A stretch of 64,000 nt of DNA from Candidatus Woesearchaeota archaeon (GCA_041665465.1 JBAYIU010000001.1:1213873-1277872); one strand, 5' to 3'. Counted from the first letter of the stretch, positions 8,624 through 43,079 are shown. The notes: a model not told the origin generated them from the letters alone. Translations and numbers: made by a program.

Positions 8624-8641
8624 CTAGATTTATAAAGTTAT

Positions 8642-11839: not shown

Positions 11840-11892
11840 TGTTGTATAATGTTACAATAATGTTTATAAATGTTTTCAGCCTAGAGAAGAAT

Positions 11893-13440: not shown

Positions 13441-13851
13441 TCATTTCTTACTTTTAGATAATCGTCTAATCCCTGAAGTTACAAATAATACTATCATCGT
13501 ACTATCAATCATTAAACAAGTTGAACAGGCTTCTTTTAAGACAAATATTTGTACTAGGATAAGATAAGCAGAAGCTGCTGCTCCAATTATTGTTCCTAAG
13601 AAAAATACTTCTGAATTGATGAAGTAAGTTACTAATAAACCGATGAACGCGAATAGAGCTAAGTAAGGAAGTTTTATCCCAAACAATGTTCCGTAACTGC
13701 TGCCTTGGACATCAGAACACCTAGTGGGTTGTCCCAACAGACAGGGGGTAGAGGAATTAAGGTTTTGGTATACTAATACTCCAGATAGAATCACTTCTAG
13801 CAAGACTAGAACTAAAATGGTCCAATCCCAAAAATTTAATCTCTTAATCAT
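13441..13851 (-). CDS. VKOR-like (vitamin K epoxide reductase family) membrane protein
   Basis: Four hydrophobic segments, loop Cys pair PCLLGQPTRC, CSTC (CxxC) at start of last TM; start taken at internal MIKRLNFWDW. Confidence 0.5.
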   Translation of the reverse strand: MIKRLNFWDWTILVLVLLEVILSGVLVYQNLNSSTPCLLGQPTRCSDVQGSSYGTLFGIKLPYLALFAFIGLLVTYFINSEVFFLGTIIGAAASAYLILVQIFVLKEACSTCLMIDSTMIVLFVTSGIRRLSKSKK

Positions 13852-14236
13852 GATGTTCGTGCTTTTCTGCTTCCTCAGCTTCTTCCTTGTTCTTGTGGAC
13901 GGTTCCATCAGGATGATTTGGCGGGGAATAAATAGTATAAAGTTTTACCTGTTTGGTGTTAGAGTTGTTAATTACATTATGATAAGTTCCTGCCGGAACA
14001 ATTACTGCGTCTCCCTCTTTAGCCAGATGAGTTTCTTTTCCGTTAAAAATAAACTTTGCTTCTCCTTCTTCTATCCGGAAGAATTGGTCTACTTTCTGGT
14101 GGACTTCATTTCCGATCTCTTCTTCCGGTTGTAAACACATCACTACCAATTGGGCATGTTTTCCGGTGTATAACACTTGCCGGAAGAAATTATTGTTCAA
14201 AGTTGATTTTTCTATCGCTCCTACGTATCCAGTCAT
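13844..14236 (-). CDS. cupin-domain protein
   Basis: GNEVHQKVDQFFRIEEG and GDAVIVPAGTYHNV cupin motifs 1 and 2; His-rich tail. Confidence 0.75.
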   Translation of the reverse strand: MTGYVGAIEKSTLNNNFFRQVLYTGKHAQLVVMCLQPEEEIGNEVHQKVDQFFRIEEGEAKFIFNGKETHLAKEGDAVIVPAGTYHNVINNSNTKQVKLYTIYSPPNHPDGTVHKNKEEAEEAEKHEHHD

Positions 14237-14328
14237 ATTCGCATCCTCTTTCTATTATATATTATAATTACTAGAAAACAGATTAAGAACTTTATAAAGA
14301 TATTCCTCGCTGTCAAAGATGGTTCTGT

Positions 14329-15585
14329 TTAACTGGGAGGAACTAATCTTTCTCCTAAACCATTAAAATAAGTTGCTCTTGCTGAACTTACCATCTCGTC
14401 ATACTGTGCCTTAAGTCCGGGCATTCCCTTGTGCCATGTACCTAAAGCTTGTTCAGTGAGTAGCAAGTCATTACCTAATCGCTTGGCAAATTTATGCAAT
14501 TCAGTATCTTTCGCTCCGGTTCTAATCGCTTGATCTACTAGATGTGCATCTCTTAATACGAAAGTCATATTATAGGTAGTAGGGTCTTCTGCAGTTAAAG
14601 TGTAATGTTTCTGTAATTGTTCTTGCACCGCTAGTTTGAGTGGTTCAATCTCTCCGTCTCCTTTTGGGAAGTATCCATGAATCTGAACCATAAATTTCAT
14701 TACTGCATCGTATCCTTGATCAGTCTTAGTGATTTCTATCGGGCTACCTCTCATCAAATAAATCGGACGAGATTCACCTTCGTTTGATCCAAAATTTCTA
14801 GTTGTGGCCTGTTCTAATTCTAGAGCTAAGGCTCCTTCTAGTGCTCCTGGACGATAAAATGATTTTAATGCCGTTGGTCCTTCTTCTAATCGAGTGTCTG
14901 GCAACATTTGTACAAAGAAGGGATAAGCAGCATCTTTTCTGGAACGCATATTCTCGCCATCTTTGTATTTCTTTGCGGCGAGATTGCCCCATTCTATAGC
15001 CAGTTGTGCTCCGATATGATCGGCACAGCTAACCGCCATCGCTCTAAACTTCTGCCACTGATAAGCTGCTTCAAAACCGGCTAAGGCTTCTCTTCTGATA
15101 CTGGTCTGAATGGGAATTACTCTTTGTCCTTCACGAACATTATCTTTGTTGATCCATTCGTTTCCGAGATGAACATTTTCAGGAAAGGTTCCGGTTTTAA
15201 CCCAGCCTCGTTCTCCATTCTCAACTCTAACCTGAATATAATTTGCGGTATCGAAAATTCTTGGTGCACTATTAAAAGTGGTCATCTCTGGTAATCGATG
15301 TTCATGTAGAAGAGCATTATCAAGATCTTTAATCTTCACTTTCTGAGGAAAACGTAAATCCCAGGTAACATGATCCACGGATGGTTTTAAATGAAAATCA
15401 TGTTGTTCTGAACTGCCTTCAACTACCATTCTTTCAAATCTGGAAGGGACAGCATCTTCTGCAAAAGATTGGCGAGCGATCCAGGCATCGTATCTTTGAT
15501 TGATCGCTTCAACTTGTTCTAAACCGAAGTCGACGTAACTTTGTGTTGGAGGAAATTGTGATAGTTTATTTTCGTAAGGTATCAT
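14329..15585 (-). CDS. hypothetical protein (418 aa)
   Basis: Long uninterrupted ORF, relatively GC-rich coding; no motif recognised. Confidence 0.6.
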   Translation of the reverse strand: MIPYENKLSQFPPTQSYVDFGLEQVEAINQRYDAWIARQSFAEDAVPSRFERMVVEGSSEQHDFHLKPSVDHVTWDLRFPQKVKIKDLDNALLHEHRLPEMTTFNSAPRIFDTANYIQVRVENGERGWVKTGTFPENVHLGNEWINKDNVREGQRVIPIQTSIRREALAGFEAAYQWQKFRAMAVSCADHIGAQLAIEWGNLAAKKYKDGENMRSRKDAAYPFFVQMLPDTRLEEGPTALKSFYRPGALEGALALELEQATTRNFGSNEGESRPIYLMRGSPIEITKTDQGYDAVMKFMVQIHGYFPKGDGEIEPLKLAVQEQLQKHYTLTAEDPTTYNMTFVLRDAHLVDQAIRTGAKDTELHKFAKRLGNDLLLTEQALGTWHKGMPGLKAQYDEMVSSARATYFNGLGERLVPPS

Positions 15586-15668
15586 AAACGTTCAAGGGGT
15601 TAAATCGATTTATATACTTAATTGTGCTGTAGTAGTTATTTTCAAATAAAAGGTAAAATTGCCAGAGA

Positions 15669-15920
15669 TTAAGCGCCTAAGAATTTTAATAGGTAGAATA
15701 CTAAAAACGCTGGCCAGATCAATGCTTTCAATATTCCCAATACTCCTGTCCAGAAGGTGGTGGCAGTGGAAATATAATAAACTAACGCTCCAATGAAACC
15801 TAATCCATAAATAGCACTGCCGGTGTGACAATAAGGTGTTTTATCTTTAACTTTGTTTTTAACCTTCTTCTTTATCATCTTAAGAAGAGGGATTATAGTT
15901 TGGTTTAAAAAACTTTTCAA
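15669..15920 (-). CDS. small membrane protein
   Basis: 83 aa, two hydrophobic helices after Lys-rich N-terminus. Confidence 0.45.
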   Translation of the reverse strand: MKSFLNQTIIPLLKMIKKKVKNKVKDKTPYCHTGSAIYGLGFIGALVYYISTATTFWTGVLGILKALIWPAFLVFYLLKFLGA

Positions 15921-15936
15921 CTACTCTAGAATAATA

Positions 15937-16389
15937 TTATTTGTGGTGAGTGTTAGAAGCTAATTTTAATAACCGTTGATATTGCCAATCTCTTTCTTTG
16001 GTTTCAGATTTGTTAGCTCTATAAATGGCCTGTTGTGCATAAACTGCTGAACCATAAGCATGTCTAGCAACGTGTGCTGTGGCTACTGCTTGACCGGCAG
16101 CTCTGGCAGCAGATCTCGCAGGGGTGTCTTCTCCTACTTCTCTCGCCGCGGCATGAGCATCAAGTGAAGCCTTGCGGATAACTTTCATACTGAAGATTCC
16201 CGTACGTATCCATTCTTGAAGCGTTTCTAACGCTTTTCTTGGTCGGTTATCTTTTGGATAGTTTTTTTCAAAGTAAGGTAGTACTCGCTTGGCACAGTCA
16301 ATAGCCCAAACAGCTAAGATCTTCTTATCTGTTTTTTCGACTAGTTCTCGTAGTGGTTCATCCTTGTGGGCAATGGAGAACTTTTTCAT
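15937..16389 (-). CDS. all-helical protein, Imm5-like (putative immunity-type) family
   Basis: WAIDCAKRVLPYFE and Ala-rich helices AARAAGQAVATAHVARHA; family assignment from memory only. Confidence 0.4.
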   Translation of the reverse strand: MKKFSIAHKDEPLRELVEKTDKKILAVWAIDCAKRVLPYFEKNYPKDNRPRKALETLQEWIRTGIFSMKVIRKASLDAHAAAREVGEDTPARSAARAAGQAVATAHVARHAYGSAVYAQQAIYRANKSETKERDWQYQRLLKLASNTHHK

Positions 16390-16482
16390 TTATTTTAGGA
16401 AGAGATTTAGATTTATAATCTTATTGATGAGGAATAGTAAATCTGCTCGGAGAAAAGTTGATTACAACATTTGAGAATAGAC

Positions 16483-17145
16483 TCATTTTAATTCAATCGA
16501 TTGAAGGTTCAATCCTTTTAACCGGGGAATTTCAATAAGTTTTTCTAATAGTATTGCTCTATCTTCTTTCGAATCGGGAGTTATTCTTTTAACTAATGGC
16601 ACAATAACTTCTTGGTAATATTTTCTTAATTCTTTTTCATGAGGGATTGCTTCAAAGAATTCCCATTCACAATTGGTCCATCGATATATCCCCGCATAAA
16701 CATGGGTTTGATCGTAAACAGTCTGAACGAATCTCTCCGGGTATGTTCCTCGTGGATAATTCAGTATTTCCCATCTCATGGAAGTACTTCCGTAGAAAGA
16801 ACACCAATGGTCATCCATAACCACTTTATCCCTGGTTAAGAGATAATGAGGTTGGTGAAAGTAAGCAATCCCTTCAATGTTTTTCTCTCCAATTTTTTCT
16901 TCATGTTGTAATTGATAGGTGTTCTCTCCTGGTTTTTTACTGAGATTTTTCCAATAAGCAGAATTAACCATACCAAAACAATTCATAGTAACTCCACTCA
17001 AATAACCCGATGCTTTTCTTCCGTGATCTAAATCCATGGAAAAAACTTGTTCTTTATTTTGAGATTTTACCGTAGTAGTACAATGTATAGAAACTGCCTG
17101 TTCTAAAGCTACGGATGGGTCCCAAGTTATGGTGGTAGTGATCAT
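16483..17145 (-). CDS. hypothetical protein (220 aa)
   Basis: ORF only. Confidence 0.5.
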   Translation of the reverse strand: MITTTITWDPSVALEQAVSIHCTTTVKSQNKEQVFSMDLDHGRKASGYLSGVTMNCFGMVNSAYWKNLSKKPGENTYQLQHEEKIGEKNIEGIAYFHQPHYLLTRDKVVMDDHWCSFYGSTSMRWEILNYPRGTYPERFVQTVYDQTHVYAGIYRWTNCEWEFFEAIPHEKELRKYYQEVIVPLVKRITPDSKEDRAILLEKLIEIPRLKGLNLQSIELK

Positions 17146-17215
17146 ATTTTAAGTGATGAATTATTAGTTGAGTTTATTTATAAAATGTATTCTAATAAAC
17201 CATTATTTTTGTTCC

Positions 17216-17229
17216 ATAAAGAAAAGTAA
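17216..17229. repeat. degenerate copy of tRNA-Gln(CUG) 3' end (outermost att-like remnant)
   Basis: taatcccgcgcgcg matches tagccccgcgcgga at 10 of 14 positions. Confidence 0.35.
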
Positions 17230-17405
17230 TCCCGCGCGCGCAATCGTCAATCGTGGCATATCTCAGAGTCCATCTTTTAACTACAAGATAAGAGAACGTA
17301 TTAACTCTTTCTGATCAAATCAACTCAGAATGGGCAGCAACGTCAAGAGTGCGGTTAAGTATTTGATATAAATGGTTCACTTTTTCGTAGAAGTAACGGA
17401 AAAGC

Positions 17406-17413
17406 TTATAAAT
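17406..17413 (+). promoter_or_regulatory. TATA-like box upstream of candidate precursor peptide
   Basis: ttataaat 25-32 nt upstream of ATG 17438. Confidence 0.4.
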
Positions 17414-17437
17414 TTCAATAAGTAGCAAGTAGTTACA

Positions 17438-17602
17438 ATGGGTTTAGAAGATCAATTTGAGGTAAAGACGCTTAGAATTGAGAGTGAGTTAGAACCTAAA
17501 GATGTTTTAAGAACCCCTGAAAGAGAAGTAAAACCGTTGTATCGCCAGCTTCAGGATGAAAAAACAACTAAATATGACACTTGGTGTCAACACTCTGATT
17601 AA
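17438..17602 (+). CDS. candidate RiPP precursor peptide (54 aa)
   Basis: MGLEDQFEVKTLRIESELEPKDVLRTPEREVKPLYRQLQDEKTTKYDTWCQHSD; acidic leader-like N-part, K-Y-D-T-W-C-Q-H core-like tail; ends 15 nt before rSAM/SPASM gene; not in ORF track. Confidence 0.45.
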   Translation: MGLEDQFEVKTLRIESELEPKDVLRTPEREVKPLYRQLQDEKTTKYDTWCQHSD

Positions 17603-17616
17603 AGAAGTTCTTTAAA

Positions 17617-18864
17617 ATGGACAATTTTCTATTTTTCCCTGCTAGTTCTATAATTCAAACAGACAAAGAGAAATTTAGGTTAGTTAACATTTATGGTGGA
17701 GTCTTTAACCTTCAATTTCCACATATTGCAGTATACCTTTCTCAACCAGAAGAAATTGATAACCCTGAAAATTTAGAACATTTGGGAATCTCGCCAAAAG
17801 ATTATCAATTTGTCTTAAGAGATTTATTGGATCATAAAGTGGTCTATCCTTCAAGAATAAAAATGGATCTGCCCTTTGATAAGAGTCAAGTTCTATCGCA
17901 AATCTTAAATTTCCCATTTACACAATCAAGAACCTTAAATATTGGGGATGTAACTCTTGAGCTTACCCAAAGTTGCCCGTATTCTTGTGAAGGTTGTTTT
18001 AGGGAGATTAATGAAGATCAATTAACTAATTCCGCTAGGCTAGAAGGATTGGTAGATGAATTATCTCTGATGGGTTTATCAAAAATTTCGTTAAGTGGTG
18101 GCGAGATTACCTCTTCCGAGAGATCATTTGATAGATTTAAACAACTGGCCAAATATATTCGACAACATCCTCAAATAAAGATAAGATTACTTACTACTGG
18201 ATTCAATCCAGAAAGAGTTAATGAAGCATTAGATTATATTGATGAAATACAAATTTCTGTTGATGGTTTGGAAGCCGCACATGACTCTTATAAACGAGTA
18301 GGTGGAGCATTTAGGAAAGCTATAGACTCTATTGAATCTTGTCAAGAAAGCAAAGTGACGTTAACAACAAATACTGTTGTTAGCCAAAGGAATATCGGAG
18401 AAGTTTCTTCTCTGATAGATTATTTGTCTCGGTTTAAGATTGACACTTTACGTATAACTAAGATATTATCTGATAAAGAACATCTCAGGTTGGGAGTTAA
18501 AGAAGCTCAAGATTTATACGGTGTGGTTCAGAGAAAACAGAAAGAACATCCTAACCTTAGAATTATTAATGCTTATGGAAATTGTACAGATGTTTTGAAT
18601 TGTGTTGGGGGAATGGTTTATGCGCATATTGGGGCAACAGGTAATGTCTTTCCTTGCGATTATGATATTCATAATTCTGGTGGGAACATAAATAACTCTC
18701 CTTTTCAAGATATTTGGACCAATTCTGAAGTATTCCACGCTTATAGAAATGTAACTGGAATACAAGATGGTTGCATAGACTGTCAATCAAGAGTTTTTTG
18801 TTTTGGAAATTGTCGGATAGATCAACAATATGTTGAAATAACTAAGATGTGTGAGAACAAATGA
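17617..18864 (+). CDS. radical SAM / SPASM-domain peptide-modifying enzyme
   Basis: CPYSCEGC (Cx3Cx2C), SLSGGE, C-terminal CIDCQSRVFCFGNC (Cx2Cx5Cx3C SPASM signature); about 100-aa N-terminal extension that could be an RRE. Confidence 0.85.
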   Translation: MDNFLFFPASSIIQTDKEKFRLVNIYGGVFNLQFPHIAVYLSQPEEIDNPENLEHLGISPKDYQFVLRDLLDHKVVYPSRIKMDLPFDKSQVLSQILNFPFTQSRTLNIGDVTLELTQSCPYSCEGCFREINEDQLTNSARLEGLVDELSLMGLSKISLSGGEITSSERSFDRFKQLAKYIRQHPQIKIRLLTTGFNPERVNEALDYIDEIQISVDGLEAAHDSYKRVGGAFRKAIDSIESCQESKVTLTTNTVVSQRNIGEVSSLIDYLSRFKIDTLRITKILSDKEHLRLGVKEAQDLYGVVQRKQKEHPNLRIINAYGNCTDVLNCVGGMVYAHIGATGNVFPCDYDIHNSGGNINNSPFQDIWTNSEVFHAYRNVTGIQDGCIDCQSRVFCFGNCRIDQQYVEITKMCENK

Positions 18865-19385
18865 TAACCACTGAATTGATTTGTTCAAGAACTTATTCTC
18901 AGACCTTGAATACACAACTTAATGATTCAGATTGGGGTAGAATTGTTGATGCAGGAAAAAGATTGGATGCCCCTTATCAACAGAACATGCCTTATTTTTT
19001 AGAGAGAATCCCCATTTATACTGGATTTAATTGGGACAATGGTCTTTCCATCCCCATTTATCTTGCTGATTTTGATGGACCTTCTAGAACAAACCCAGTT
19101 ACTATCAAAATTGGAGCTGTTGAAGATATGCTTGTAAAGATAATTCATGAATTAATTCATCTTAATTTCCCAAACTCTATCTTTAATCTAAATGATAATG
19201 TCTATGAGGATGTTGTTAATCAAGTTACATTAAGAATTGCAGAAGACCAAGATATTAAGGGAGTTATATCTTTAGAACAAATGTTGTCTTATAGAACTTC
19301 TCTCTTGGGTAAAGAAATAGAACTTCCAGTTATTGATCTAGATAAAGTAAATGTCAGGGACTATTTCTTAAAACGTGTTTTGTAA
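18861..19385 (+). CDS. putative HExxH zinc metallopeptidase
   Basis: IIHELIHLNF motif; start overlaps rSAM stop by 4 nt (ATGA). Confidence 0.5.
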   Translation: MITTELICSRTYSQTLNTQLNDSDWGRIVDAGKRLDAPYQQNMPYFLERIPIYTGFNWDNGLSIPIYLADFDGPSRTNPVTIKIGAVEDMLVKIIHELIHLNFPNSIFNLNDNVYEDVVNQVTLRIAEDQDIKGVISLEQMLSYRTSLLGKEIELPVIDLDKVNVRDYFLKRVL

Positions 19386-19413
19386 TGATCTCTAAATATG
19401 TCCAAAATATATA

Positions 19414-19426
19414 TCTCCCCGCGTGA
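19414..19426. repeat. degenerate tRNA-Gln 3'-end-like remnant
   Basis: tctccccgcgtga matches tagccccgcgcgg at 9 of 13 positions; lies within hairpin ctccc..gggag. Confidence 0.25.
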
Positions 19427-19501
19427 GGGAGCTCAAATGATGGGATTTAGGACATTATATAAGTGATTAGGGTTTTCTCTCAGATATGGATCTGTTCTGT
19501 T

Positions 19502-19903
19502 ATGAATTCTAAGGCTGAAGGCTTGGCTGTTCGTGCAAGAGAATCATTAAGCAGTTATTGTTATAACGAATGTCTCGCATACTGTTGCAGAAAAGGCTAC
19601 CTATTATTATCTGAACCAGAAGTAAGTCTTCTTCAGATGGATATAAAGGATTTGGTAATAATGCCTATAGATAGAACTTACATATTTAACTTAAGCAAAG
19701 GTTGTCCGAACCTTAAAGAATATAAATGTTTAATACATCAGAATCCACAAAGACCAAAAGCGTGCAAAGAATTTCCGTTATTTATTTTTGGAAAAACTGT
19801 TGTGGTTACAGAAGACTGTCCGGCAGTAAAACAAAACAAATTATATCCTTTTTTAGCTGAATTCAAGTCAATGGGATATAAGTTAGTTTATAGTACTAGG
19901 TAG
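19502..19903 (+). CDS. YkgJ/UPF0153-like Cys-rich (CxxCxxCC) putative Zn/Fe-chelating protein
   Basis: CYNECLAYCC and CPNLKEYKCLIHQNPQRPKACKEFP; ATG 19502 preferred over GTG 19463. Confidence 0.55.
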   Translation: MNSKAEGLAVRARESLSSYCYNECLAYCCRKGYLLLSEPEVSLLQMDIKDLVIMPIDRTYIFNLSKGCPNLKEYKCLIHQNPQRPKACKEFPLFIFGKTVVVTEDCPAVKQNKLYPFLAEFKSMGYKLVYSTR

Positions 19904-19915
19904 GAATTAACAACC

Positions 19916-20134
19916 TCATGACAACCATGTACCAATTACTACAATTAATAATACTACAGCAATAAATAATTTTGTTGCGATTATGCTACAAAATGTAATT
20001 GGATATTTCTTTAAAGGAATAAGCATGCGAACCCCACCAAATGTGCGTGCTTCACGTTTTCTTATATCTACTATCGATGAAATAATAGCTAAAATTCCAG
20101 CACACAAGTAAAATATTTCTAATGTTAAGCTCAT
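19916..20134 (-). CDS. small membrane protein
   Basis: 72 aa, two hydrophobic helices. Confidence 0.4.
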   Translation of the reverse strand: MSLTLEIFYLCAGILAIISSIVDIRKREARTFGGVRMLIPLKKYPITFCSIIATKLFIAVVLLIVVIGTWLS

Positions 20135-20199
20135 CGTAAGTTTATAATAGGGTTTTTCTTCTTAAATTTTTCCGTGGTTATTAAGAGTAGGAATATACA

Positions 20200-20212
20200 T
20201 AGCTCCCGCGCG
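20200..20212. repeat. tRNA-Gln(CUG) 3'-end fragment (att-like)
   Basis: tagcTcccgcgcg equals tagccccgcgcg with one inserted T. Confidence 0.5.
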
Positions 20213-20254
20213 TCTATCTGGCTAAGGAGCTCGAGTGAATGACACTATCTCTCC

Positions 20255-20294
20255 TTGTCCACTTTTGGTTAACAAATACCTATTTTGTGGACAA
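20255..20294. promoter_or_regulatory. inverted repeat TTGTCCAC-N24-GTGGACAA just 3' of the Fic gene
   Basis: Exact 8-bp arms; same arms recur at the Fic promoter (21226-21255). Confidence 0.5.
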
Positions 20295-20296
20295 CA

Positions 20297-21223
20297 CTAA
20301 AGCTTGAATTGTTCGATAACCACTTCAAACATCTTCTCACAATATCCTTTGTAATCTTTACGATTATGTGTATCGATAGCTTCGTAATATTTGGGTCTTA
20401 ATCTAACCGGAACAAATAATTTTGGATATTTGGCTTGTAATAAGACCCAATTCATTAAAGTTCTTCCAGTTCTTCCGTTTCCATCCTCGAATGGGTGAAT
20501 TTCTACAAATTGAGCATGAATCAAACAAGCCAGAACAAAAGGATGAATCTTTCTCTTGTTATCATAATAGAATTCGATCATTTTCTTCAATAGTGGCTTT
20601 ACTTCTTCAGGTTCGGGCGGAACATGTTCAGCACCTTCTATCTTTACGGGAAAGAATCTTACTCTACCTGGATAAACAACTCCGGTATTTTTAGTGAGAA
20701 TTCCATTAATTTCCTCTATACATTCAATAGTTAATTTTCCTTTATATTTCTTGATGAAATCAAAGGCATCTCTTCCGTTAATGGCTTCATTATAATCTTT
20801 TGGGGGAGCTCCAGAAGGTATTTGTTTTTCTTTAATAATTAAGTAAGTGTCTCTTAAGGTTAATCTATTTCCCTCGATTGCATTAGAGTTATAAGTGAAG
20901 CGAATAATAAACTCAGACTCTTCTTTTTCAGCAACGGTTTTAGGGATTTTATTCAGATGGTTATTATAAACTTCTTTGAAATCATCAATTATTTCTAATT
21001 TATCTGCATCCAAATAATCTTTATTGTAAATTTTATATTCTTCTAATTTTAGTTCTTTTAACTTCTTGCCGATTTCTTCTCTAGTTGGTTCTTTTTCTCC
21101 TAGTTTGATGCGGATTTTTTTCCATTCACTTTCTCCGGTTCTAACTGTCTTTCCTAAATAATAGAATGTCTTCTTACCTGATTTGATACGATCTACGTAT
21201 ACCATATAAGTTATATTGTCCAC
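20297..21223 (-). CDS. fic: Fic-domain protein (AMPylase/Doc-like toxin family)
   Basis: Canonical HPFEDGNGRTGR (HxFx[D/E]GNGRxxR) motif; 308 aa. Confidence 0.9.
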   Translation of the reverse strand: MDNITYMVYVDRIKSGKKTFYYLGKTVRTGESEWKKIRIKLGEKEPTREEIGKKLKELKLEEYKIYNKDYLDADKLEIIDDFKEVYNNHLNKIPKTVAEKEESEFIIRFTYNSNAIEGNRLTLRDTYLIIKEKQIPSGAPPKDYNEAINGRDAFDFIKKYKGKLTIECIEEINGILTKNTGVVYPGRVRFFPVKIEGAEHVPPEPEEVKPLLKKMIEFYYDNKRKIHPFVLACLIHAQFVEIHPFEDGNGRTGRTLMNWVLLQAKYPKLFVPVRLRPKYYEAIDTHNRKDYKGYCEKMFEVVIEQFKL

Positions 21224-21225
21224 AT

Positions 21226-21255
21226 TATATATAAATCTTTCTGATTTGTGGACAA
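21226..21255. promoter_or_regulatory. operator-like inverted repeat TTGTCCACA-N12-TGTGGACAA spanning the Fic TATA box
   Basis: Arms flank ttatatataaat immediately upstream of Fic start (21223). Confidence 0.5.
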
Positions 21256-21321
21256 TATTATTATCACTGCGTAACTTAGAACATTTCGTTTGGTGTAGTG
21301 ATAACTTTTAGTAAAGAATAT

Positions 21322-21335
21322 TAGCCCCGCGCGGA
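21322..21335. repeat. tRNA-Gln(CUG) 3'-end fragment (att-like), 14/14 identical
   Basis: tagccccgcgcgga identical to 24887-24900. Confidence 0.7.
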
Positions 21336-21343
21336 GACGTGAC

Positions 21344-21862
21344 TTATAAACGGAACTCGGAGGACGCAATACTTCTATTCTTCCAATCGTAAACTCTTTT
21401 TTCTAATTCTAATTGTGGGGACTTTGCAAATTGTGACAGATCTTCAGAAGTTTTATCTTGAATTTTCATTCCCGTCCTTTTGATAATTTCTCTTGCTGTT
21501 TCAAGGGCGCTTTTATATGCTACTTCATCCGCTTTTCTTAAACCAAAACAAGATCCAACTATCTCATCAGTGTTATAATCAGAATCATATCTAACTTTCA
21601 CCTTATATCCTATCAAAGCAGGATTAATGAAAAACATCATTGGTGCAGTCATTGTTGCACCACCGCCAATTGCAGAGCGGGTTCCAGCTTCTCTAGTTTC
21701 AACAATTGGGTCTCTTTCTTCTTTGCTGGTTAGATATAGTCCGTACTTAGGAGAAGAAAAGGCGTCTCTTCCAATTAATTCATTTCCTGAAGAGATCATT
21801 CTAACTTGAACGGTGTCCACGCCATTTTTCTCATTGTGTTTTATCCAATCTTCAATGTTCAT
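21344..21862 (-). CDS. hypothetical protein (172 aa)
   Basis: ORF only. Confidence 0.5.
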   Translation of the reverse strand: MNIEDWIKHNEKNGVDTVQVRMISSGNELIGRDAFSSPKYGLYLTSKEERDPIVETREAGTRSAIGGGATMTAPMMFFINPALIGYKVKVRYDSDYNTDEIVGSCFGLRKADEVAYKSALETAREIIKRTGMKIQDKTSEDLSQFAKSPQLELEKRVYDWKNRSIASSEFRL

Positions 21863-21920
21863 AATTGGAATATTTTAACCTATACATTTAAATATAACTC
21901 CTACCAATTGGTAGGATATA

Positions 21921-22649
21921 ATGGATACAACTGTTTTTGAGGAACTTGGCCTAACTAGAACTGAAATAAAGATATATTTGACTTTACTAAAATTAGGTGC
22001 TTCTAGCGCAGGAATTATATTAGATAAATCTCAACTACCTAGTTCTACTGTTCATAGGGACTTAAATTCTTTAATTGCAAAAGGATTGATTAATTTCATA
22101 TTAGCTGGTAAAAGAAAGGTTTATCGAGCAACTGAACCAGAGCATTTGTTTGATTTTGTTGAAGATAAGAAAAGAAAACTTCAAGAAATACTGCCTGAAC
22201 TAAAAGAAACACAAAGGGGAACAACAAATGAAGAATCTGCTTCTGTCTATAAGGGAGTAAGGGGTATCAAAGAAGTATACAATATTATGATAAATGCTAA
22301 AGGAAAAGAATACAATACCTTTGGTGGAGGACCAATAACTTCTAAGATCATGGGTTTTACTTGGTGGCTTAATTTACATAAAAGAAGGGTCGCAAATAAA
22401 CTTCAATCAAGACAAGTTTTTGATGATTCAGTTAGAGTTGGGGGTATGAAGATTGCAGAAAACTTCTTAACAAAGATAAGATATTTGAATAAGGAATTTG
22501 CGCAATTTCAAGAGACTGTAATAGTTGGAGATCTTGTTACAATAGCAGTGTTTTCTGAAAATCCATATGCTCTTCTGATAAAAGATAAAAATGTTGCGGA
22601 TAGTTATAGGAAGTACTTTGGAATATTATGGAAGCAGGCTAAAGAATAA
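21921..22649 (+). CDS. TrmB-family transcriptional regulator
   Basis: N-terminal wHTH LGLTRTEIKIYLTLLKLGASSAGIILDKS..; paralog of 60008-60721. Confidence 0.8.
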   Translation: MDTTVFEELGLTRTEIKIYLTLLKLGASSAGIILDKSQLPSSTVHRDLNSLIAKGLINFILAGKRKVYRATEPEHLFDFVEDKKRKLQEILPELKETQRGTTNEESASVYKGVRGIKEVYNIMINAKGKEYNTFGGGPITSKIMGFTWWLNLHKRRVANKLQSRQVFDDSVRVGGMKIAENFLTKIRYLNKEFAQFQETVIVGDLVTIAVFSENPYALLIKDKNVADSYRKYFGILWKQAKE

Positions 22650-22664
22650 GTATTCTGTATGTCA

Positions 22665-22683
22665 TAGCCCCGCCGGAACTTCT
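22665..22683. repeat. 19-bp direct repeat, left copy (tRNA-3'-end-like)
   Basis: tagccccgccggaacttct; 18/19 identical to 24716-24734. Confidence 0.65.
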
Positions 22684-22773
22684 GCCTTCGGTGTTCTTTT
22701 GGCAGAAAAAGTGATAAAAGAAGTGCCGCCGTGAGCTCATTTAGATAGCCCACGAAGCGAGCACGATGACCAT

Positions 22774-22785
22774 TAGCCCCGCGCG
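22774..22785. repeat. tRNA-Gln(CUG) 3'-end fragment (att-like), 12/12
   Basis: tagccccgcgcg identical to 24887-24898. Confidence 0.6.
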
Positions 22786-22901
22786 AATCAGACACAGACA
22801 CTGCATCAGAAAGGATCCATTCCTAATATATTCTCTAGTTCCACAATCTATTTAAACAGTTGTTTCAAACAAAGTATAAATTAACCAGGGGTGGTAAATT
22901 T

Positions 22902-23504
22902 ATGGAAAAAGAAACATATGATAAAATTGTTGAAAAGATGCCAGAGATTGCAAAAATAGTCTCATCTTTTCCGGAAAAGGTTCAGGATAAAGCCTTCGAT
23001 TTGCTGATTTCTAATCTTATTGGAGAGGGTATAACTAAAGGAGTAAGTCCGAAAACAACTGATGTTCCTAAGGCAATTCAGAATTATGCAATGTCTTCAT
23101 TGGCTGGGATAGCTATGAAAACAAGTGATGGAAATTTTCATCTCTCAATAAGAGACCTTAAAGCAACTTCTGCAAGTGATGCTGCTAAACGTTTAACTTA
23201 CGTAATAATAAGAGCCTATAACAAAATAATGGGTGAGGCTGCTGTTTCTAGAAAGGAAACAATAAACCCCCACATAGAATCTTGGAGGCTAAATTCTGGT
23301 AATACTAGAAATTTTTTAGCTAATGATCCGGGAATTATTAGAAACGGAGATAAATATTCACTAGATATTCACGCCGAGGCAGAAGCAGATGAATTCATAA
23401 AAGAAATTCAAGATTCAAATGTCTCCGGAAATTGGAAGCCTAATAGTAGAATTCCAAAAAAGAAGAACTCAAATATAGAGGAAAAAAATGAATCAACCGT
23501 TTAA
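22902..23504 (+). CDS. hypothetical protein, first gene of three-gene module
   Basis: ATG 22902 preceded by ggggtgg SD-like and TATA-like ctatttaaac; overlaps the next gene by 17 nt. Confidence 0.55.
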   Translation: MEKETYDKIVEKMPEIAKIVSSFPEKVQDKAFDLLISNLIGEGITKGVSPKTTDVPKAIQNYAMSSLAGIAMKTSDGNFHLSIRDLKATSASDAAKRLTYVIIRAYNKIMGEAAVSRKETINPHIESWRLNSGNTRNFLANDPGIIRNGDKYSLDIHAEAEADEFIKEIQDSNVSGNWKPNSRIPKKKNSNIEEKNESTV

Positions 23505-24264
23505 TTTTTCCTCTGTCTTTGCGAACTTACCTGAAGAATTAAGATTTAACTTAGAGGAAAGATACGGAGAAATTATTCGTAACTTCCGAGAAAATAGATT
23601 TGAACCTTCAGAACTAAATGGGGCTAAATTTGCTGAAGCTGTTTTTAGAACATTAGAATGGTATACTTCCTCAACTAAAGTATACACTCCTTTTGGTACT
23701 TCTATTCGGGATTTTGAGCAGGCATCAAGAAAGTTTGAAAGCATGTCCAGTTTTCCAGATTCAATGCGTTTTCATATCCCCAAATTGCTTGCTTCTATTT
23801 ATTCTCTGAGGAATAAAAGAGGTGTAGGCCATATTGGAGGAGATATAAATCCAAATCATATGGATGCTTCATTAGTTGTTTCAATAAGCAAATGGATTTT
23901 AGCTGAGTTAGTGAGGATATTTTATGCAGTAAACTTACAAGAAGCAAACACAATTGTAGAACACTTAGTTGCAAAAGAATTCCCCATCGTTTGGGATGTT
24001 TTGAATAGAAAAAGAATACTTGATACTTCCCTAGATTTTAATAAGAAAGTATTAGTGCTTCTACATTCTTGTTATCCAAATCCTGTAAATGAAAAAAATC
24101 TTTTGTATTGGGTTGAATATTCTAATCCATCTTTCTTCAGAACAAAAATCTTAATCCCGCTTCATGAAGAAAAGATGATCGAATATGATAATAATTCAAA
24201 ATACATTTTAATTTCTCCAAAGGGAATTAAATTTGTAGAAGAAAAAGTGCCTTTAAAATTTTAA
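23488..24264 (+). CDS. hypothetical protein with Rx6H (HEPN-like) motif
   Basis: LRNKRGVGHIGGD at nt 23809-23832; helical composition; HEPN assignment tentative. Confidence 0.5.
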   Translation: MNQPFNFSSVFANLPEELRFNLEERYGEIIRNFRENRFEPSELNGAKFAEAVFRTLEWYTSSTKVYTPFGTSIRDFEQASRKFESMSSFPDSMRFHIPKLLASIYSLRNKRGVGHIGGDINPNHMDASLVVSISKWILAELVRIFYAVNLQEANTIVEHLVAKEFPIVWDVLNRKRILDTSLDFNKKVLVLLHSCYPNPVNEKNLLYWVEYSNPSFFRTKILIPLHEEKMIEYDNNSKYILISPKGIKFVEEKVPLKF

Positions 24265-24278
24265 CTTGGGTGAATAAA

Positions 24279-24692
24279 ATGAATAAAGAATTAGAAGATC
24301 TTGAGAAACAATTTATACTAGATGGTGATATGGAAAATGAGGATTTAAAAACCCTCATTGAGAAATTACTCTTTTTTTGTAAGATTGACAAAAACGGATA
24401 TGTTATTGTTGATAACGGATCTACTAAAAAATTAACGACTCCCAATGGGATTCTTTTGGTTTTGTCTGCGCGATATCTGGCAAGTAAGTTGCAACAAAAA
24501 TTGGGAAAAGAATCTTCTATAAAAGAAGAAGTGGAAACGCAAGAAATTGCCCAAATGTTGAAAGAAAAGCCCGCAATAGTTACCGCAAGATTGAAAGATC
24601 TAAAGGACCAAAAATTAGTGGTTCCAGTTGAAAGAGGTACGTTTAAAATAGCATCATACGCTATAGCTGACTTATTAAACAAATTAAGATAA
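24279..24692 (+). CDS. hypothetical protein with C-terminal wHTH-like region
   Basis: EIAQMLKEKPAIVTARLKDLKDQKLVVPVERGTFKI; central region weakly resembles the first gene of the module. Confidence 0.5.
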   Translation: MNKELEDLEKQFILDGDMENEDLKTLIEKLLFFCKIDKNGYVIVDNGSTKKLTTPNGILLVLSARYLASKLQQKLGKESSIKEEVETQEIAQMLKEKPAIVTARLKDLKDQKLVVPVERGTFKIASYAIADLLNKLR

Positions 24693-24715
24693 TTTTTTCT
24701 CTTAATTTTTTACAT

Positions 24716-24734
24716 TAGCCCTGCCGGAACTTCT
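24716..24734. repeat. 19-bp direct repeat, right copy
   Basis: tagccctgccggaacttct. Confidence 0.65.
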
Positions 24735-24886
24735 CTAATACGTCAGGGTTATTACCTCCTAGCCAAAATCCCACAGAATTTTTGTATTACATTCTCACTG
24801 TGCATCTATCACGTGAAACTGGGACTAAATGAGCAAGAAAAATGGCATCCAGAAAAATCGACCCTGCAAGATGCAAAAAAGGTAAG

Positions 24887-24990
24887 TAGCCCCGCGCGGA
24901 TTCGAATTCCGTCATGTCAAAATCATTTTTGAACATCCCGCGGTCGCAAGGTTCAGAGCCTTGAATGCTAGTCCACTACAATACGGGGCT
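24887..24990 (-). tRNA. tRNA-Gln(CUG) with about 31-nt intron in the T-arm
   Basis: Acceptor AGCCCCG/CGGGGCT + A73; anticodon stem CAAGG/CCTTG, loop CTCTGAA; T-arm CGCGG-[intron]-TTCGAAT-CCGCG only after removing GATGTTC..ACGGAA. Confidence 0.8.
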
Positions 24991-25025: not shown

Positions 25026-25109
25026 TTTCTCTCAACATTAATATACCTACTCTCCAGTAGTTAAAAACCAAAAGATTTAAAAAGAACTGCCCTATTTTAT
25101 ACATAAACC

Positions 25110-25259
25110 ATGTATAGAAAACAATATACTCTTCTGAAACGGATTGCCAAACATGGCAGCCAATCTATTATAGTCATACCTAAAATAATTGAGAAAGAGC
25201 TTCGTCCCGGAACTATTGTAAAGATTACCGTAGATGTGCTACAAGAGGTGAATCAATGA
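25110..25259 (+). CDS. AbrB/SpoVT-like (swapped-hairpin) small DNA-binding protein, 49 aa
   Basis: IAKHGSQSIIVIPKIIEKELRPGTIVKITVDV resembles the AbrB/MazE fold pattern; stop overlaps kinase ATG (ATGA); not in ORF track. Confidence 0.55.
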   Translation: MYRKQYTLLKRIAKHGSQSIIVIPKIIEKELRPGTIVKITVDVLQEVNQ

Positions 25260-27232
25260 ATCCAGATCAACTCTTAATGCTTCTTGGACATAAATACTCT
25301 AATCTTACTCCTTTCAAAGAAGGAGGGACTGGAAAATTATATCAGGTAAACTTTGGTCTTGGCGAAGAAAAAAGAATCGCTAAGGTTGACCGTACTCCTG
25401 AATCTCCTCGTGCTTCTAGACATGTGCAACGTGGATGTAATGTTGACAATGAATTAGCTGCTGTATCTCAAATTGATAATCCTGCTGATCATCACCTTAT
25501 GCCCCTCTTAGATTATGTTCAGACAACGGAAGGAACCATAGTAGTAATGCCTTTCTTTGCTTCTCAATCTTTAGAGGAACGAGTAGATAACAAACCTCTC
25601 TCGGAAAAAGAATTTGTTTCCGTCTTCTCTCAACTTTTGGAAGGAGTATCCTATTTACATCAAGAAGAAGAGATGTTCCATCGTGATCTTAAACCTTCAA
25701 ATATTCTTTTAGGTAAGAGAAATGGTGATTTAGAAGTACGTATCACTGATTTTGGGAATGCTGTTAAGCGATCTAAACTAAAAGAAAATGTTCTTCCCAC
25801 AGCGGGTGGACATTGGGTAATGGATCCATTACTGATTGGATTATTTACTGGAACCAGTGTTAAGTATACTGAACAAGCAGAAATGTACGCCTTGGGTGTA
25901 GATATGTATTATGCTCTTACTGGAAAGTATCTGTTTGAATATGATCCTGATCAGGAAAAAGCTAGGGTAGTTTCTAATAAGGAAAGTTTACTTGATCTGG
26001 AAGGCAAGATTGATCGTAGTAAACATAATCAAGAATTAGAGAAAGCTCTCTCCACACTTCCTCGTAATTTAAGAAAATACTCTTCTGTGTTACGTAAATG
26101 TATGACTTTAGAAGAGAGTGAACGTTACAATTCTATTCCTGAATTACAAGATGATTTTAAAGAAGTCTCTCGACAAGGTATATTACAAAGAATCGGTAGA
26201 CATCCTTTTATTGCTTTAGCCATAGCAACAATGATTGGTTTAAGCGGAACCGGAGCAGCAGTGGGATATCATCATGTTCAGAAAGAACGATTAGAACAAG
26301 AATTAGTGGAAAGTTCTAAATTTCCGGTAATACCGCAATGGAACGGTTGGGGTAATGTAGGAATAGGAAATAGTTTATTCAGAATGGATGTGAATGTTTC
26401 CGTTTGGGGTCCAAGCAGTGACAATGATTTTGCTAAACAGAAATATGTTATAGCTGAACCGGGGATGAAACTTAATGTGGATACTCGGGTAAAAGGTATC
26501 CCTTCTCAGAAAGGAGAACCTTTCTTTGGGAAAGTTTATTTTGAAGGAGAATCGGAAAGTAAATCTATTGGGGGATGGATGGAAGATTTTGACGAATCCA
26601 AATTATTTGGTTCTGATTTTGGGTATATGCCTAGTTACGTTGAGGTGGTGGTACCAGAATATTATGAAAAAGGAACACATAATTTGGTGATAGAGATATA
26701 TGCTCCATCTGAAGAAGAGCTTAAAGATAAGACTTATTATCATGGTGTGGGGGAAGTACGTTATACCTCTCCCGGTAGAGTATTATCCTTACAAAAAATT
26801 CCTGTAATTATTGGGAACCCAGAAGAGGATGGTTTATCCTTAGAGATGCTTATTTCATATATGGGGGCCAGTCATCTTGGGATTAGACGTGTTACTAGTT
26901 TAGGTAGTATAGAGCATAATCCACAGTACCAATTACAAGCATGTTTGTTGGAAGAAGGATTCTGTTCTATCTCTAGGAATGCTTATTCTGTTGATCTGGC
27001 GGATAGGATTTCTGATTTTAACGAGAAAACTTTGCAGGTAGTGGTTAGAGATCTTAACCATGGAGGAAGGGTTGTCCTTGAAACTTATTACCCGGTTAAA
27101 CGTGATTCTAGATACGAAGAAGGCAAGGCTTGGACTCATGATTGGGTGTTGTCTATCCCGGGAAGAGATTTCCAAGAACGGATTGTTCCATACTCTCGAT
27201 TACTACGTCTAATCGAGAATCAGTCCGAGTAA
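25256..27232 (+). CDS. membrane-spanning Hanks-type Ser/Thr protein kinase with large C-terminal extracytoplasmic domain
   Basis: GGTGKLY, IAKV, HRDLKPSNILL, ITDFGNA; TM FIALAIATMIGLSGTGAAVGY. Confidence 0.85.
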   Translation: MNPDQLLMLLGHKYSNLTPFKEGGTGKLYQVNFGLGEEKRIAKVDRTPESPRASRHVQRGCNVDNELAAVSQIDNPADHHLMPLLDYVQTTEGTIVVMPFFASQSLEERVDNKPLSEKEFVSVFSQLLEGVSYLHQEEEMFHRDLKPSNILLGKRNGDLEVRITDFGNAVKRSKLKENVLPTAGGHWVMDPLLIGLFTGTSVKYTEQAEMYALGVDMYYALTGKYLFEYDPDQEKARVVSNKESLLDLEGKIDRSKHNQELEKALSTLPRNLRKYSSVLRKCMTLEESERYNSIPELQDDFKEVSRQGILQRIGRHPFIALAIATMIGLSGTGAAVGYHHVQKERLEQELVESSKFPVIPQWNGWGNVGIGNSLFRMDVNVSVWGPSSDNDFAKQKYVIAEPGMKLNVDTRVKGIPSQKGEPFFGKVYFEGESESKSIGGWMEDFDESKLFGSDFGYMPSYVEVVVPEYYEKGTHNLVIEIYAPSEEELKDKTYYHGVGEVRYTSPGRVLSLQKIPVIIGNPEEDGLSLEMLISYMGASHLGIRRVTSLGSIEHNPQYQLQACLLEEGFCSISRNAYSVDLADRISDFNEKTLQVVVRDLNHGGRVVLETYYPVKRDSRYEEGKAWTHDWVLSIPGRDFQERIVPYSRLLRLIENQSE

Positions 27233-28114
27233 AGGACTGTTAGATTGATAGAAGTTTCTGATTGCTGCCAACAGATGATAGATAGCAATTCTTTCACTAG
27301 GAGCAACGGTTTTAAGCGCTTGATAGCCTTGTCCATAAATTAACTGTTTCTCTAATTGGTGTATCTGACTAAAGTTCTCTGTTTTCTTAGTAAAGAAAGC
27401 CTCTTGTATTAACCGGTAAAGTTCTTTAGTCTTTTCCAGTAGTTTAAGTACATTCTTGGGGGATAGTTCTTTTTCATCTATTATCTTATTTAGCAGATAA
27501 ATCTCTCTCTGTCCGTGATTGATCAGAGTAAGAAAGGTCCAGAAGAATTCTGGAGAGGTATGTTCTAATTTATTCTTATTTACAATCCTGCGACAGAAAT
27601 TATCATATTTAATGATCCTATTCTCTATCTCTTTATATTCTTGATCTTCAGGAGAAGTAGTTAATCTTTCCATAGTTTTATCAAACAATAAGTCGATGTT
27701 AAAAAAAATCTTTTTCAGAATGACTTCAAATTGTTCTGAAGTAGGCTCAGTAATATTCTCTACTAAACACACTCCTTTATTGTTATTAATTATCTCAAAT
27801 CCGATAAGATTATTCAATATAACCTCTTTAAGTATCTTAAACTGGGCTTCGTCCTGATAATGAACTGTAATCCGATCAAACCCTTTACGATAAGTGTTGG
27901 TGATAAGAGTACGAATGGACGATTCAGTTAAATCACTCAGTTTAATTTCAGTGTCTCTTTTAATCTTAATCAAATTAGGTGCTAGAATTATTTGGCTAGA
28001 AGATGCTTCAATTTCTACTTCGCTTCCTTTTCTAAGTTTGTGAGCTTTGATCCATTTAGCGGGGAGGCTAACCATTAAAGTTCCGCTTCCTTGTTGAACC
28101 AGTTTTCTTCTCAT
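27209..28114 (-). CDS. AbrB-domain + PhoU-like regulator
   Basis: N-terminal KLVQQGSGTLMVSLPAKWIKAHKLRKGSEVEIE (AbrB-like) followed by two helical PhoU-like repeats. Confidence 0.6.
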   Translation of the reverse strand: MRRKLVQQGSGTLMVSLPAKWIKAHKLRKGSEVEIEASSSQIILAPNLIKIKRDTEIKLSDLTESSIRTLITNTYRKGFDRITVHYQDEAQFKILKEVILNNLIGFEIINNNKGVCLVENITEPTSEQFEVILKKIFFNIDLLFDKTMERLTTSPEDQEYKEIENRIIKYDNFCRRIVNKNKLEHTSPEFFWTFLTLINHGQREIYLLNKIIDEKELSPKNVLKLLEKTKELYRLIQEAFFTKKTENFSQIHQLEKQLIYGQGYQALKTVAPSERIAIYHLLAAIRNFYQSNSPLLGLILD

Positions 28115-28263
28115 ACCCTTTTCTTCTTTCGCTTATTTAAAAATCTTTTGGATAAATATATACTTTTTACTAAGTATAAACCATTTAAACTAAAAATATA
28201 TATCTTATCCCCTTCTATGTTTGTTATCATTAAAGAGTGGTTAGGTAACAAAAGGAGGATAAA

Positions 28264-29352: not shown

Positions 29353-29364
29353 GAGGGAGTAAGA

Positions 29365-30039: not shown

Positions 30040-30041
30040 AA

Positions 30042-32199: not shown

Positions 32200-32294
32200 G
32201 AAAAATAAGATTAAGTAATTTTATTCCCTTTATTCCCCTTTATTGATATTTATTCAAACCCCAATTAATATACTTCTCTTTACCTCATAAAGTT

Positions 32295-36530: not shown

Positions 36531-36544
36531 TAAGAAAAATTAGC
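36531..36544. repeat. casposon target-site duplication, left copy (14 bp)
   Basis: taagaaaaattagc identical to 53171-53184. Confidence 0.9.
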
Positions 36545-36589
36545 GGGTATATAGATATAGGCCTGTTTTTCGGACTATATCTAAACCCT
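36545..36589. repeat. casposon left TIR
   Basis: gggtatatagatataggcctgtttttcggactatatctaaaccct is the exact reverse complement of 53126-53170. Confidence 0.95.
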
Positions 36590-36681
36590 CCCTTATTTTT
36601 TAAATAATCTAAAAGTTCAAAAATAGTTATTCGCTTTTTTAATAACAAGATTTATTAAATTTAACCCTTATTAATTGTTAA

Positions 36682-37672: not shown

Positions 37673-37693
37673 GATAGAGAAAGAAAACTAAAA

Positions 37694-43077: not shown

Positions 43078-43079
43078 TT

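Follow-up and report, generated by a model that had tools for sequence, protein, structure and literature searches.

A ladder of tRNA-Gln(CUG) 3′-end copies bounding small integrase-less cassettes in a woesearchaeal genome, a probable case of tRNA-anchored island accretion

An intron-bearing tRNA-Gln(CUG) gene and displaced copies of its 3′ end

The region studied here lies downstream of a tRNA-Gln(CUG) gene in a Candidatus Woesearchaeota archaeon, within a 64-kb stretch of DNA (GCA_041665465.1 JBAYIU010000001.1:1213873-1277872) that we call the window. The window has a G+C content of 34.5%, and its proteins find their best matches, though distant ones, in Woesearchaeota and Nanoarchaeota, which places the organism among the DPANN archaea, without a closely related genome sequenced. 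An earlier note, made from the sequence alone, had described the terminal sequence of this tRNA as recurring five times downstream of the gene and had read the region as the product of serial integration at the tRNA 3′ end.

No tRNA was called in the window by ARAGORN with default settings or by Rfam at the gathering threshold. Once 31 nt (24907-24937) were excised in silico, the minus-strand sequence at 24887-24990 gave a clean 73-nt cloverleaf, which ARAGORN identified as tRNA-Gln(ctg), in keeping with the earlier description of the gene as intact. Exon 1 covers 24938-24990 and exon 2 covers 24887-24906, and the intron falls in the T arm, between T-stem position 53 and T-loop position 54. 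The same intron is kept in the metagenomic locus L089, which is 94% identical over the gene, and the tRNA-Gln of another locus (L051) has an intron at the same 53/54 position. Because of this conservation, the gene is, as judged from its sequence, a conserved intron-bearing gene and not a pseudogene, and it would be intact if spliced. A second gene, tRNA-Gln(UUG) (53181-53297, minus strand), apparently carries two insertions, one in the D-loop region and one beside the anticodon. With their non-canonical introns, both tRNA-Gln genes escape standard tRNA and Rfam scans.

The sequence that recurs downstream is a 14-mer, TAGCCCCGCGCGGA, which at the tRNA itself occupies 24887-24900 as read on the plus strand (core B0, the putative attB/attL core). 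It runs from the last T-loop base (60) through the 3′ strands of the T stem and the acceptor stem to the discriminator (73), and it contains an 8-bp palindrome, CCGCGCGG. Six sites in the window lie within two edits of this 14-mer, all on the plus strand, compared with 0.017 expected from Markov-2 simulations. They comprise the two tRNA-Gln genes, an exact copy at 21322, a copy with one mismatch at 22774, one with a single deletion at 22665 and one with two edits at 24716. The exact copy (core B2, 21322-21335, TAGCCCCGCGCGGA, 14/14) and that at 22774 (core B1, 22774-22787, TAGCCCCGCGCGAA, 13/14 overall and 12/12 over the first 12 positions) reproduce the matches reported before and are individually significant, and their identity ends sharply after 14 nt on both sides. 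The copy at 20200 (core B3, 20200-20213, TAGCTCCCGCGCGT, 12/12 with one inserted T), also listed in the earlier note, is significant as a 12-mer with at most one edit, with 0.03 expected per window.

Two further copies, each significant by itself, had been missed. They form a 19-nt pair, TAGCCCyGCCGGAACTTCT, which is 18/19 identical between the A box (22665-22683, plus strand) and the A′ box (24716-24734, plus strand, TAGCCCTGCCGGAACTTCT). The A′ box is a variant of the core with a 1-nt deletion and an extension foreign to the tRNA, and lies 152 nt distal to B0. The A box is followed by a 90-nt spacer that reaches to B1, and the whole segment (22665-22773) once flanked the tRNA directly. Reading A and B as one long composite repeat was considered and rejected, as the A-B1 and A′-B0 spacers cannot be aligned. 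The A box is restricted to this lineage, and neither the tRNA end nor the A box gave a match in scans of viral contigs.

The two most distal sites are degenerate. The site placed at 17216 in the earlier note contains the 8-mer CCCGCGCG, which occurs five times on the plus strand, always within 17231-24891, and once on the minus strand elsewhere in the window, against an expectation of 0.03-0.08. The core there really begins at 17228 (core B5, 17228-17241, plus strand, AATCCCGCGCGCGC) and as a 14-mer is at chance level, having four edits, for which about 25 matches are expected. The site at 19414 (putative core B4, 19414-19427, plus strand, TCTCCCCGCGTGAG) shares the 7-mer CCCCGCG with the core, and as a core copy it is likewise at chance level and thus unproven. 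Of the five recurrences first proposed, three are therefore significant, one is weak and one unproven. The expectation that older copies should be more decayed agrees with a rough trend, decay with distance being only roughly monotonic.

Every core site falls between genes and points the same way as the tRNA 3′ end, irrespective of how the genes beside it are oriented, which argues against a role as promoters or terminators. An intact tRNA is thus accompanied on its 3′ side by displaced fragments in the same orientation, which reach the discriminator and place the crossover at the T-stem/acceptor junction. This junction corresponds to the ‘J’ sublocation commonly used by tyrosine integrases (PMC4383910).

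Cassettes and their cargo

The core copies divide the region into five cassettes of 0.8-2.2 kb. Cassettes 1-3 have significant cores at both sides and only cargo genes inside. Cassette 1 (22788-24886, 2,099 bp) adjoins the tRNA and holds three plus-strand open reading frames (ORFs): one of 200-214 aa (22860-23504), one of 258 aa with an all-alpha domain and a winged helix-turn-helix (wHTH) domain (23488-24264), and one of 137-140 aa that is wHTH-like (24270-24692). Cassette 2 (21336-22664) encodes a 172-aa protein with no assigned function (21344-21862, minus strand) and a TrmB-family regulator (21921-22649, plus strand), and cassette 3 (20214-21321) a Fic-domain protein (20297-21223, minus strand) that also matches the PADLOC SoFic model (2.9e-34). 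Cassette 4 (19428-20199) carries a CxxCxxCC/YkgJ-like gene (19463-19903, plus strand) and a 72-aa ORF (19916-20134, minus strand). Cassette 5 (17242-19413) resembles a cluster for ribosomally synthesised and post-translationally modified peptides (RiPPs), with plus-strand genes for a 54-aa peptide (17438-17602), a radical SAM/SPASM protein (17617-18864) and a 174-aa protein (18861-19385). Pfam searches bore out the gene content read earlier from the sequence as far as the radical SAM/SPASM, CxxCxxCC, Fic and TrmB genes are concerned; the other ORFs are unannotated.

The 258-aa protein of cassette 1 has more than 1,100 homologues, in DPANN archaea and several bacterial groups. Its relatives in the nearest contexts examined (L009, L010) have a partner of ~200 aa encoded upstream, overlapping or adjacent, and two other contexts (L011, L012) have two ORFs of ~135 aa in place of that partner. 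The protein is modelled, with a predicted local distance difference test (pLDDT) score of 88, as an all-alpha domain in which an RNxRGVGH block is invariant, joined to a MarR-like winged helix at the C terminus. It had no Pfam or PADLOC match, and a fold search of the PDB gave no significant match. On these comparisons, the protein and its partner form a widespread two-gene module of unassigned role. None of the four contexts shows an association with tRNA-Gln, and the module is, by this reading of its gene neighbourhoods, mobile but not bound to the tRNA-Gln site.

Distal to the last core lies a stretch without a surviving fragment (13909-17227), encoding a cupin (130 aa), proteins of 418 aa, 69-73 aa and 220 aa, and an Imm5-like immunity protein (15937-16389; PF21805, 8.7e-43) with no recognisable cognate toxin beside it. 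Beyond it, a VKOR gene (13441-13908, minus strand) and an HD-domain gene (11809-13095) form a conserved distal frame. Just outside the island, at 4940-11839, two adjacent genes encode very large secreted subtilases (1,227 aa and 1,065 aa) that contain PKD and Ig-like repeats.

Comparison with related tRNA-Gln loci

A metagenome scan with the 20-nt tRNA end retrieved 119 loci. Counting copies of the core with at most two edits, 20 lie downstream on the same strand (345 kb searched), four upstream (386 kb searched) and two on the opposite strand, a downstream same-strand bias that is the one expected of displaced 3′ fragments. Many of these loci have one or two extra copies of the tRNA 3′ end 70-170 nt downstream of tRNA-Gln (L019/L064, L020, L023, L051, L052, L073, L074, L084 and L100). 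These near copies are sometimes tandem, in units of ~70-120 nt, and their spacing resembles that of A′ and B in the window.

The earlier note had proposed comparing relatives at the cassette boundaries, and for cassette 1 the comparison is informative at the nucleotide level. In L089, the junction sequence GATAGCCCACaAAGCGAGCACGATGACCAT is followed directly at the tRNA by TAGCCCCGCGCGGA. Window positions 22744-22787, that is, flank plus core, equal this tRNA-proximal junction at 42/44 nt, and the likeness of the flank extends through the A box (76% over 124 nt). In the window, the L089-like flank adjoins the displaced copy at 22774, while tRNA-Gln(CUG) itself adjoins unrelated DNA. The segment 22788-24886 is thus, relative to L089, an insertion exactly at the core, giving an occupied and an unoccupied site that part at the repeat.

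Further contrasts between occupied and unoccupied sites are visible at the gene level. L089 has its own insert, 3.8 kb between the tRNA and a displaced copy, which encodes Fur, ZnuABC, a VKOR fragment and DUF134 and has no integrase. It is bounded by a 34-nt repeat (33/34), and ~100 nt separate the distal copy from an EncFtn gene. L036, which is syntenic with the window (77-82% nucleotide identity), has an EncFtn gene 92% identical in nucleotides to that of L089 at ~270 nt from its tRNA. The second contrast is between L046 and the window. L046 has kept the HD-domain protein and VKOR (55% and 49% aa identity to the window), and the pair lies 2.1 kb from its tRNA, compared with 11 kb for the same stretch in the window. 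The intervening DNA of L046 contains two cassettes of ~1 kb, unlike those of the window and separated by core fragments.

The window's island proteins, from the cupin through the 140-aa ORF, had no homologue in any other tRNA-Gln locus. The island had been thought to start at 17.2 kb; given the conserved frame, it probably starts at VKOR (~13.9 kb), and 13.9-17.2 kb would then be an older part from which the fragments have been lost. A scan of the genome collection with the flanking kinase found only unrelated bacterial kinases, and the kinase homologues are at most 40% identical, so that synteny could not be followed through this gene.

The other side of the tRNA varies as well. L036 lacks the block that occupies 25030-33334 in the window, on the 5′ side of tRNA-Gln(CUG); in that locus, an ornithine/arginine decarboxylase gene (33331-34515 in the window) comes directly after the tRNA region. 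The block holds a 49-aa AbrB/MazE-like ORF, a Ser/Thr kinase, a 301-aa AbrB-domain protein, a 362-aa ORF, four consecutive ORFs of 224-245 aa and a 347-aa ORF. From this comparison, it reads as a second variable region beside the same tRNA.

A clade-specific integrase family at the same tRNA end

Tyrosine recombinases were sought in the comparative loci with phmmer seeded with a canonical XerD sequence, which served as a lead only, and hits were then confirmed with Pfam; a motif prefilter had yielded false candidates only, namely CTP synthase, a Bud32-like kinase and spurious frames. Two loci (L056, L117) have PF00589 integrases of ~400 aa located 18-88 nt downstream of an identical tRNA-Gln 3′ end, and related copies are likewise placed directly downstream of it in two more (L053, L119). 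The L056 integrase has a zinc ribbon at its C terminus. More than 2,600 proteins belong to the family, most of them named from Woesearchaeota and Nanoarchaeota, and other members adjoin tRNA-Ser or tRNA-Glu.

One pair of loci bears on the site used. L138 and L139 have the same integrase, with a whole tRNA-Glu in front of it in one case and only the last 17 nt of that tRNA in the other, and the attachment (att) block of the family would therefore extend from the T-loop end to the discriminator, in the same register as the 14-mer of the window. Short att cores are usual in archaea, with 8-26 nt and a median of 17 in Thaumarchaeota (PMC6563490).

Other members of the family were seen in varied company. 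In L135/L136, an integrase of this family (10001-11236) heads an element resembling an integrative and conjugative element (ICE), with a TrbC/type IV secretion system pilin, ParB and a VirB4/TraC-like ATPase; the adjacent tRNA is tRNA-Ser by eye and, according to ARAGORN, a tRNA-Asn with an intron. L132 and L133 share an identical integrase and right-hand genes, including a reverse transcriptase, at tRNA-Ser, with two different left-hand contexts, and upstream of the tRNA-Ser gene of L133 lies an additional 5′ fragment of that tRNA.

Proposed history of the island

Taken together, the statistics, orientation and placement of the fragments, the comparative loci and the integrases at the same tRNA end support the proposal of serial integration, and it is probable that the region from ~13.9 or 17.2 kb to 24.9 kb is an island built by serial site-specific insertions at the tRNA-Gln(CUG) 3′ end. 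In such a history, the 14-mer at the T-stem/acceptor junction, with the last T-loop base at one end and the discriminator at the other, would be the recombination core. A circular DNA with a core-like site would recombine with the tRNA core, each insertion restoring the tRNA and pushing the earlier junction copy, with its cargo, further downstream. The newest cassette (22788-24886) would then adjoin the tRNA, and the older, more decayed copies would lie distally. The enzyme would most likely be a tyrosine integrase of the ~400-aa Woesearchaeota/Nanoarchaeota family. The cassettes would behave as cis-mobilisable units, which may have decayed from integrase-bearing elements or may have been moved in trans by an integrase encoded elsewhere. 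The order A(22665)-B(22774)-[three genes]-A′(24716)-B(24887) suggests that cassette 1 was excised between two B cores of a related tRNA-Gln locus that already had an A box, and was then inserted at the tRNA of the window.

Several observations weigh against this history. No integrase was found anywhere in the 64-kb window with Pfam, PHROGs, precomputed annotations or phmmer, which extends to the entire window what the earlier note had said of the island; none lies inside the island or at its edge. Among the best 120 matches to the integrase family, none is on a contig as long as that of the window, and a cognate enzyme in this genome is thus unproven. Independent clean loss of the integrase from each cassette would be unparsimonious: gene-dense cargo without an integrase or scar fills each of the 11 fragment-bounded intervals that were examined, of which five lie in the window, two in L046 and one each in L061, L089, L110 and L015. 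The site at 19414 is indistinguishable from chance and that at 17228 is weak. L036 is an empty site at the gene level only, its intergenic DNA being unalignable. Exact-protein look-ups with the kinase, ArgRS, Fic, TrmB and the 258-aa protein brought up no strain and no gene arrangement but those of the window, and no presence/absence polymorphism was found among near-identical assemblies of this strain. Finally, the shift in G+C across the island is small (~0.33 versus 0.38).

A hidden integrase would have little space. Six-frame searches of the window with the relevant integrase family gave a best tblastn E-value of 0.1 and a best family hidden Markov model E-value of 1, and the intergenic space in the island amounts to only ~1.1 kb, which leaves no room for a hidden pseudogene. 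Some ORFs overlap cores (e.g. 22604-22801 and 21211-21369); they have no Pfam or PHROG match, and profiles of the PF00589 type may miss divergent fragments of the kind encoded by SSV-type viruses.

With integrases uniformly lacking from the 11 intervals, the cassettes may be moved in trans. In the fullest form of this idea, which we regard as a tentative proposal with the chances against it, the array would be a working, integron-like cassette platform and not a graveyard of decayed elements: small cargo cassettes of Woesearchaeota-type DPANN archaea would be excised and re-inserted at tRNA-Gln in trans by the zinc-ribbon integrases of the clade. Equally tentatively, these integrases would be carried on ICE-like or other elements, and each cassette would end in a core, with an A-box arm added in this lineage.

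Alternative explanations

Serial site-specific insertion has to be weighed against capture by homologous recombination of the Campbell type, in which circular or linear DNA of a related strain recombines through the tRNA 3′ end and its conserved flank without a dedicated integrase. The repeat shared with L089 is long, 33/34 at the core and weaker out to ~125 nt, including the A box, and it decays outward, as such capture would leave it; the interleaved order A-B-[genes]-A′-B′ shows that cassette 1 brought a flank from a related tRNA-Gln locus, and a route that needs no integrase suits a window that has none. The sharp-edged 14-nt repeats at 21322 and 22774, however, are far too short for RadA-type recombination, and the A′-B0 spacer is unrelated to the A-B1 spacer. 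The strictly 3′-terminal, co-oriented placement in the T-stem/acceptor register is a signature of site-specific recombination, and a tRNA-targeting integrase family is present at the same site elsewhere. We consider homology-driven capture unlikely.

A second alternative arises from the casposon of the same window. As stated before, a complete casposon (36531-53184) resides at the other tRNA-Gln gene, and the assignment is confirmed by its terminal inverted repeats (TIRs; 36545-36601 and 53114-53170, 57 nt, 93% complementary), its target-site duplication (TSD) and its Cas1 gene (41866-43083, minus strand); PolB is encoded at 45221-47884 on the plus strand. The TSD is a perfect 14 bp, TAAGAAAAATTAGC, with a 4-nt overlap with tRNA-Gln(UUG), and L036 provides the empty casposon site, in which the target is uninterrupted and TAAGAATAAAAAG runs straight into TAGCCCCGCTCGGA. 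A 1,235-aa NACHT-like protein (48087-51794) is also encoded within the casposon.

The casposase, Cas1, might then have inserted segments at tRNA-Gln(CUG), each with a 14-bp duplication, to form a CRISPR-like array with giant ‘spacers’. The perfect repeat shared by 21322 and 24887 is exactly as long as the casposon TSD, the paralogous tRNA-Gln, 28 kb distant, hosts a casposon with an intact Cas1, and casposases are documented to integrate at tRNA 3′ ends and to form tandem arrays (PMC5137440; PMC6563490). Against this, the cassettes have no TIRs and no likeness to the casposon TIRs, local alignment of their ends giving null-level scores, and the shared lengths of 19 nt for the A/A′ pair and 34 nt for the L089 repeat do not fit a TSD of fixed length. 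The register also disagrees. In Aciduliprofundum boonei, the T-psi-C part of the tRNA is a ‘leader’ that is not duplicated (PMC5137440). The resident casposon obeys this rule, since TAAGAAAAATTAGC consists of 10 nt of flank and 4 nt of tRNA; the ladder repeat does not, as it corresponds to the ‘leader’ part, in a register 10 nt away. Involvement of the casposase in the ladder is thus not supported, and we rate it as very improbable. The suggestion that both tRNA-Gln genes are targets of mobile elements holds for the casposon at the UUG gene; with its different register, the casposon is mechanistically separate from the ladder.

That the GC-rich motif arose by chance or serves regulation, without any link to integration, for instance as a protein-binding palindrome (CCGCGCGG), hardly merits belief: the core does contain an 8-bp palindrome, the sites are intergenic and those at 19414 and 17228 are degenerate, but the copies match the tRNA terminus at 14/14 and 13/14, including the non-palindromic TAGC, occur on one strand and only downstream of the tRNA in no steady relation to gene orientation, show the same downstream bias in 119 unrelated loci and, as the flank match with L089 shows, mark a true insertion.

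Relationship to known integrative systems

The island, read as serial insertion, is of an already known kind, a tRNA-anchored accretion of integrase-less cassettes, here in a DPANN archaeon. The displacement of older elements distally by accretion, with partial tRNAs left scattered, has been documented (10.1101/2020.12.28.424599; PMC5704250). The present case is set apart by the unusually small size of its cassettes and their lack of an integrase, and a candidate integrase family specific to the clade occupies the same site in other loci.

The tandem tRNA islands defined by the Islander signature share with the window an intact tRNA, co-oriented 3′ fragments downstream, a crossover at the T-stem/acceptor junction and stacked units (PMC4383910). 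Under that signature, every unit must have its integrase and measure at least 2 kb, whereas the window units measure 0.8-2.2 kb, none has an integrase and the core is 14 nt. Closer in content are the cis-mobilisable elements (CIMEs) of Streptococcus and other bacteria, which are bounded by att sites, lack integration and transfer genes and occur in tandem at tRNA-type 3′ ends (PMC5704250). From their sequence, cassettes 1-3 have this organisation, with a putative att site on both sides and no integration or transfer genes. An incoming element that encodes a cognate integrase could mobilise CIMEs (PMC5704250). Unlike them, the window cassettes are hosted by a DPANN archaeon, have no integrase-bearing partner in the window and are much smaller.

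The tycheposon islands of Prochlorococcus are likewise seeded by tRNAs, with new elements pushing older ones inward and partial tRNAs among the cargo (10.1101/2020.12.28.424599). A tycheposon encodes a tyrosine recombinase and a replication module of its own, and integrase fragments persist in tycheposon islands, whereas no such genes or scars are present in the window; the domain of life and the integrase family also differ. Integrons and clusters of attC sites lacking integron-integrases (CALINs) resemble the window in having cassettes of ~1 kb with one to three genes, a short separating site, the newest unit at the anchor and no recombinase inside the cassettes. They differ in that the window has no adjacent IntI-type integrase and no imperfect palindromes of the attC kind, its site being the directly repeated tRNA 3′ end; repeat scans gave direct repeats of 14-19 nt and no recurring hairpin site. 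Casposon arrays, as in Methanosarcina and Nitrosopumilus, share the tRNA 3′-end target and repeats of 14-15 bp, and a casposon lies in the same window. The window cassettes differ from them in lacking TIRs, Cas1 and PolB, in a register shifted 10 nt into the tRNA and in their longer repeats of 19-34 nt.

Implications for gene exchange in DPANN archaea

DPANN archaea depend on hosts and have tiny genomes, whose mobile elements have been charted only poorly. On the evidence of this locus and its metagenomic relatives, the tRNA-Gln(CUG) 3′ end is a recurrent insertion hotspot in this clade, at which cargo arrives in very small units, among them a SoFic-like Fic protein, pairs of regulators, a RiPP-like cluster and metal-uptake genes. 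To act on the site, the clade has a large integrase family of its own that targets tRNA genes. Without movement of the cassettes in trans, the locus would be an ordinary and well-documented example of tRNA-anchored island accretion. If they do move in trans, it would represent a simple route of gene exchange among reduced genomes, and the defined 14-nt att site, together with the integrase family, could be tested for archaeal genome engineering. Should the array prove to be a working platform, tRNA-Gln(CUG) would be a shared docking site through which defence and toxin-antitoxin-like genes are exchanged between reduced genomes.

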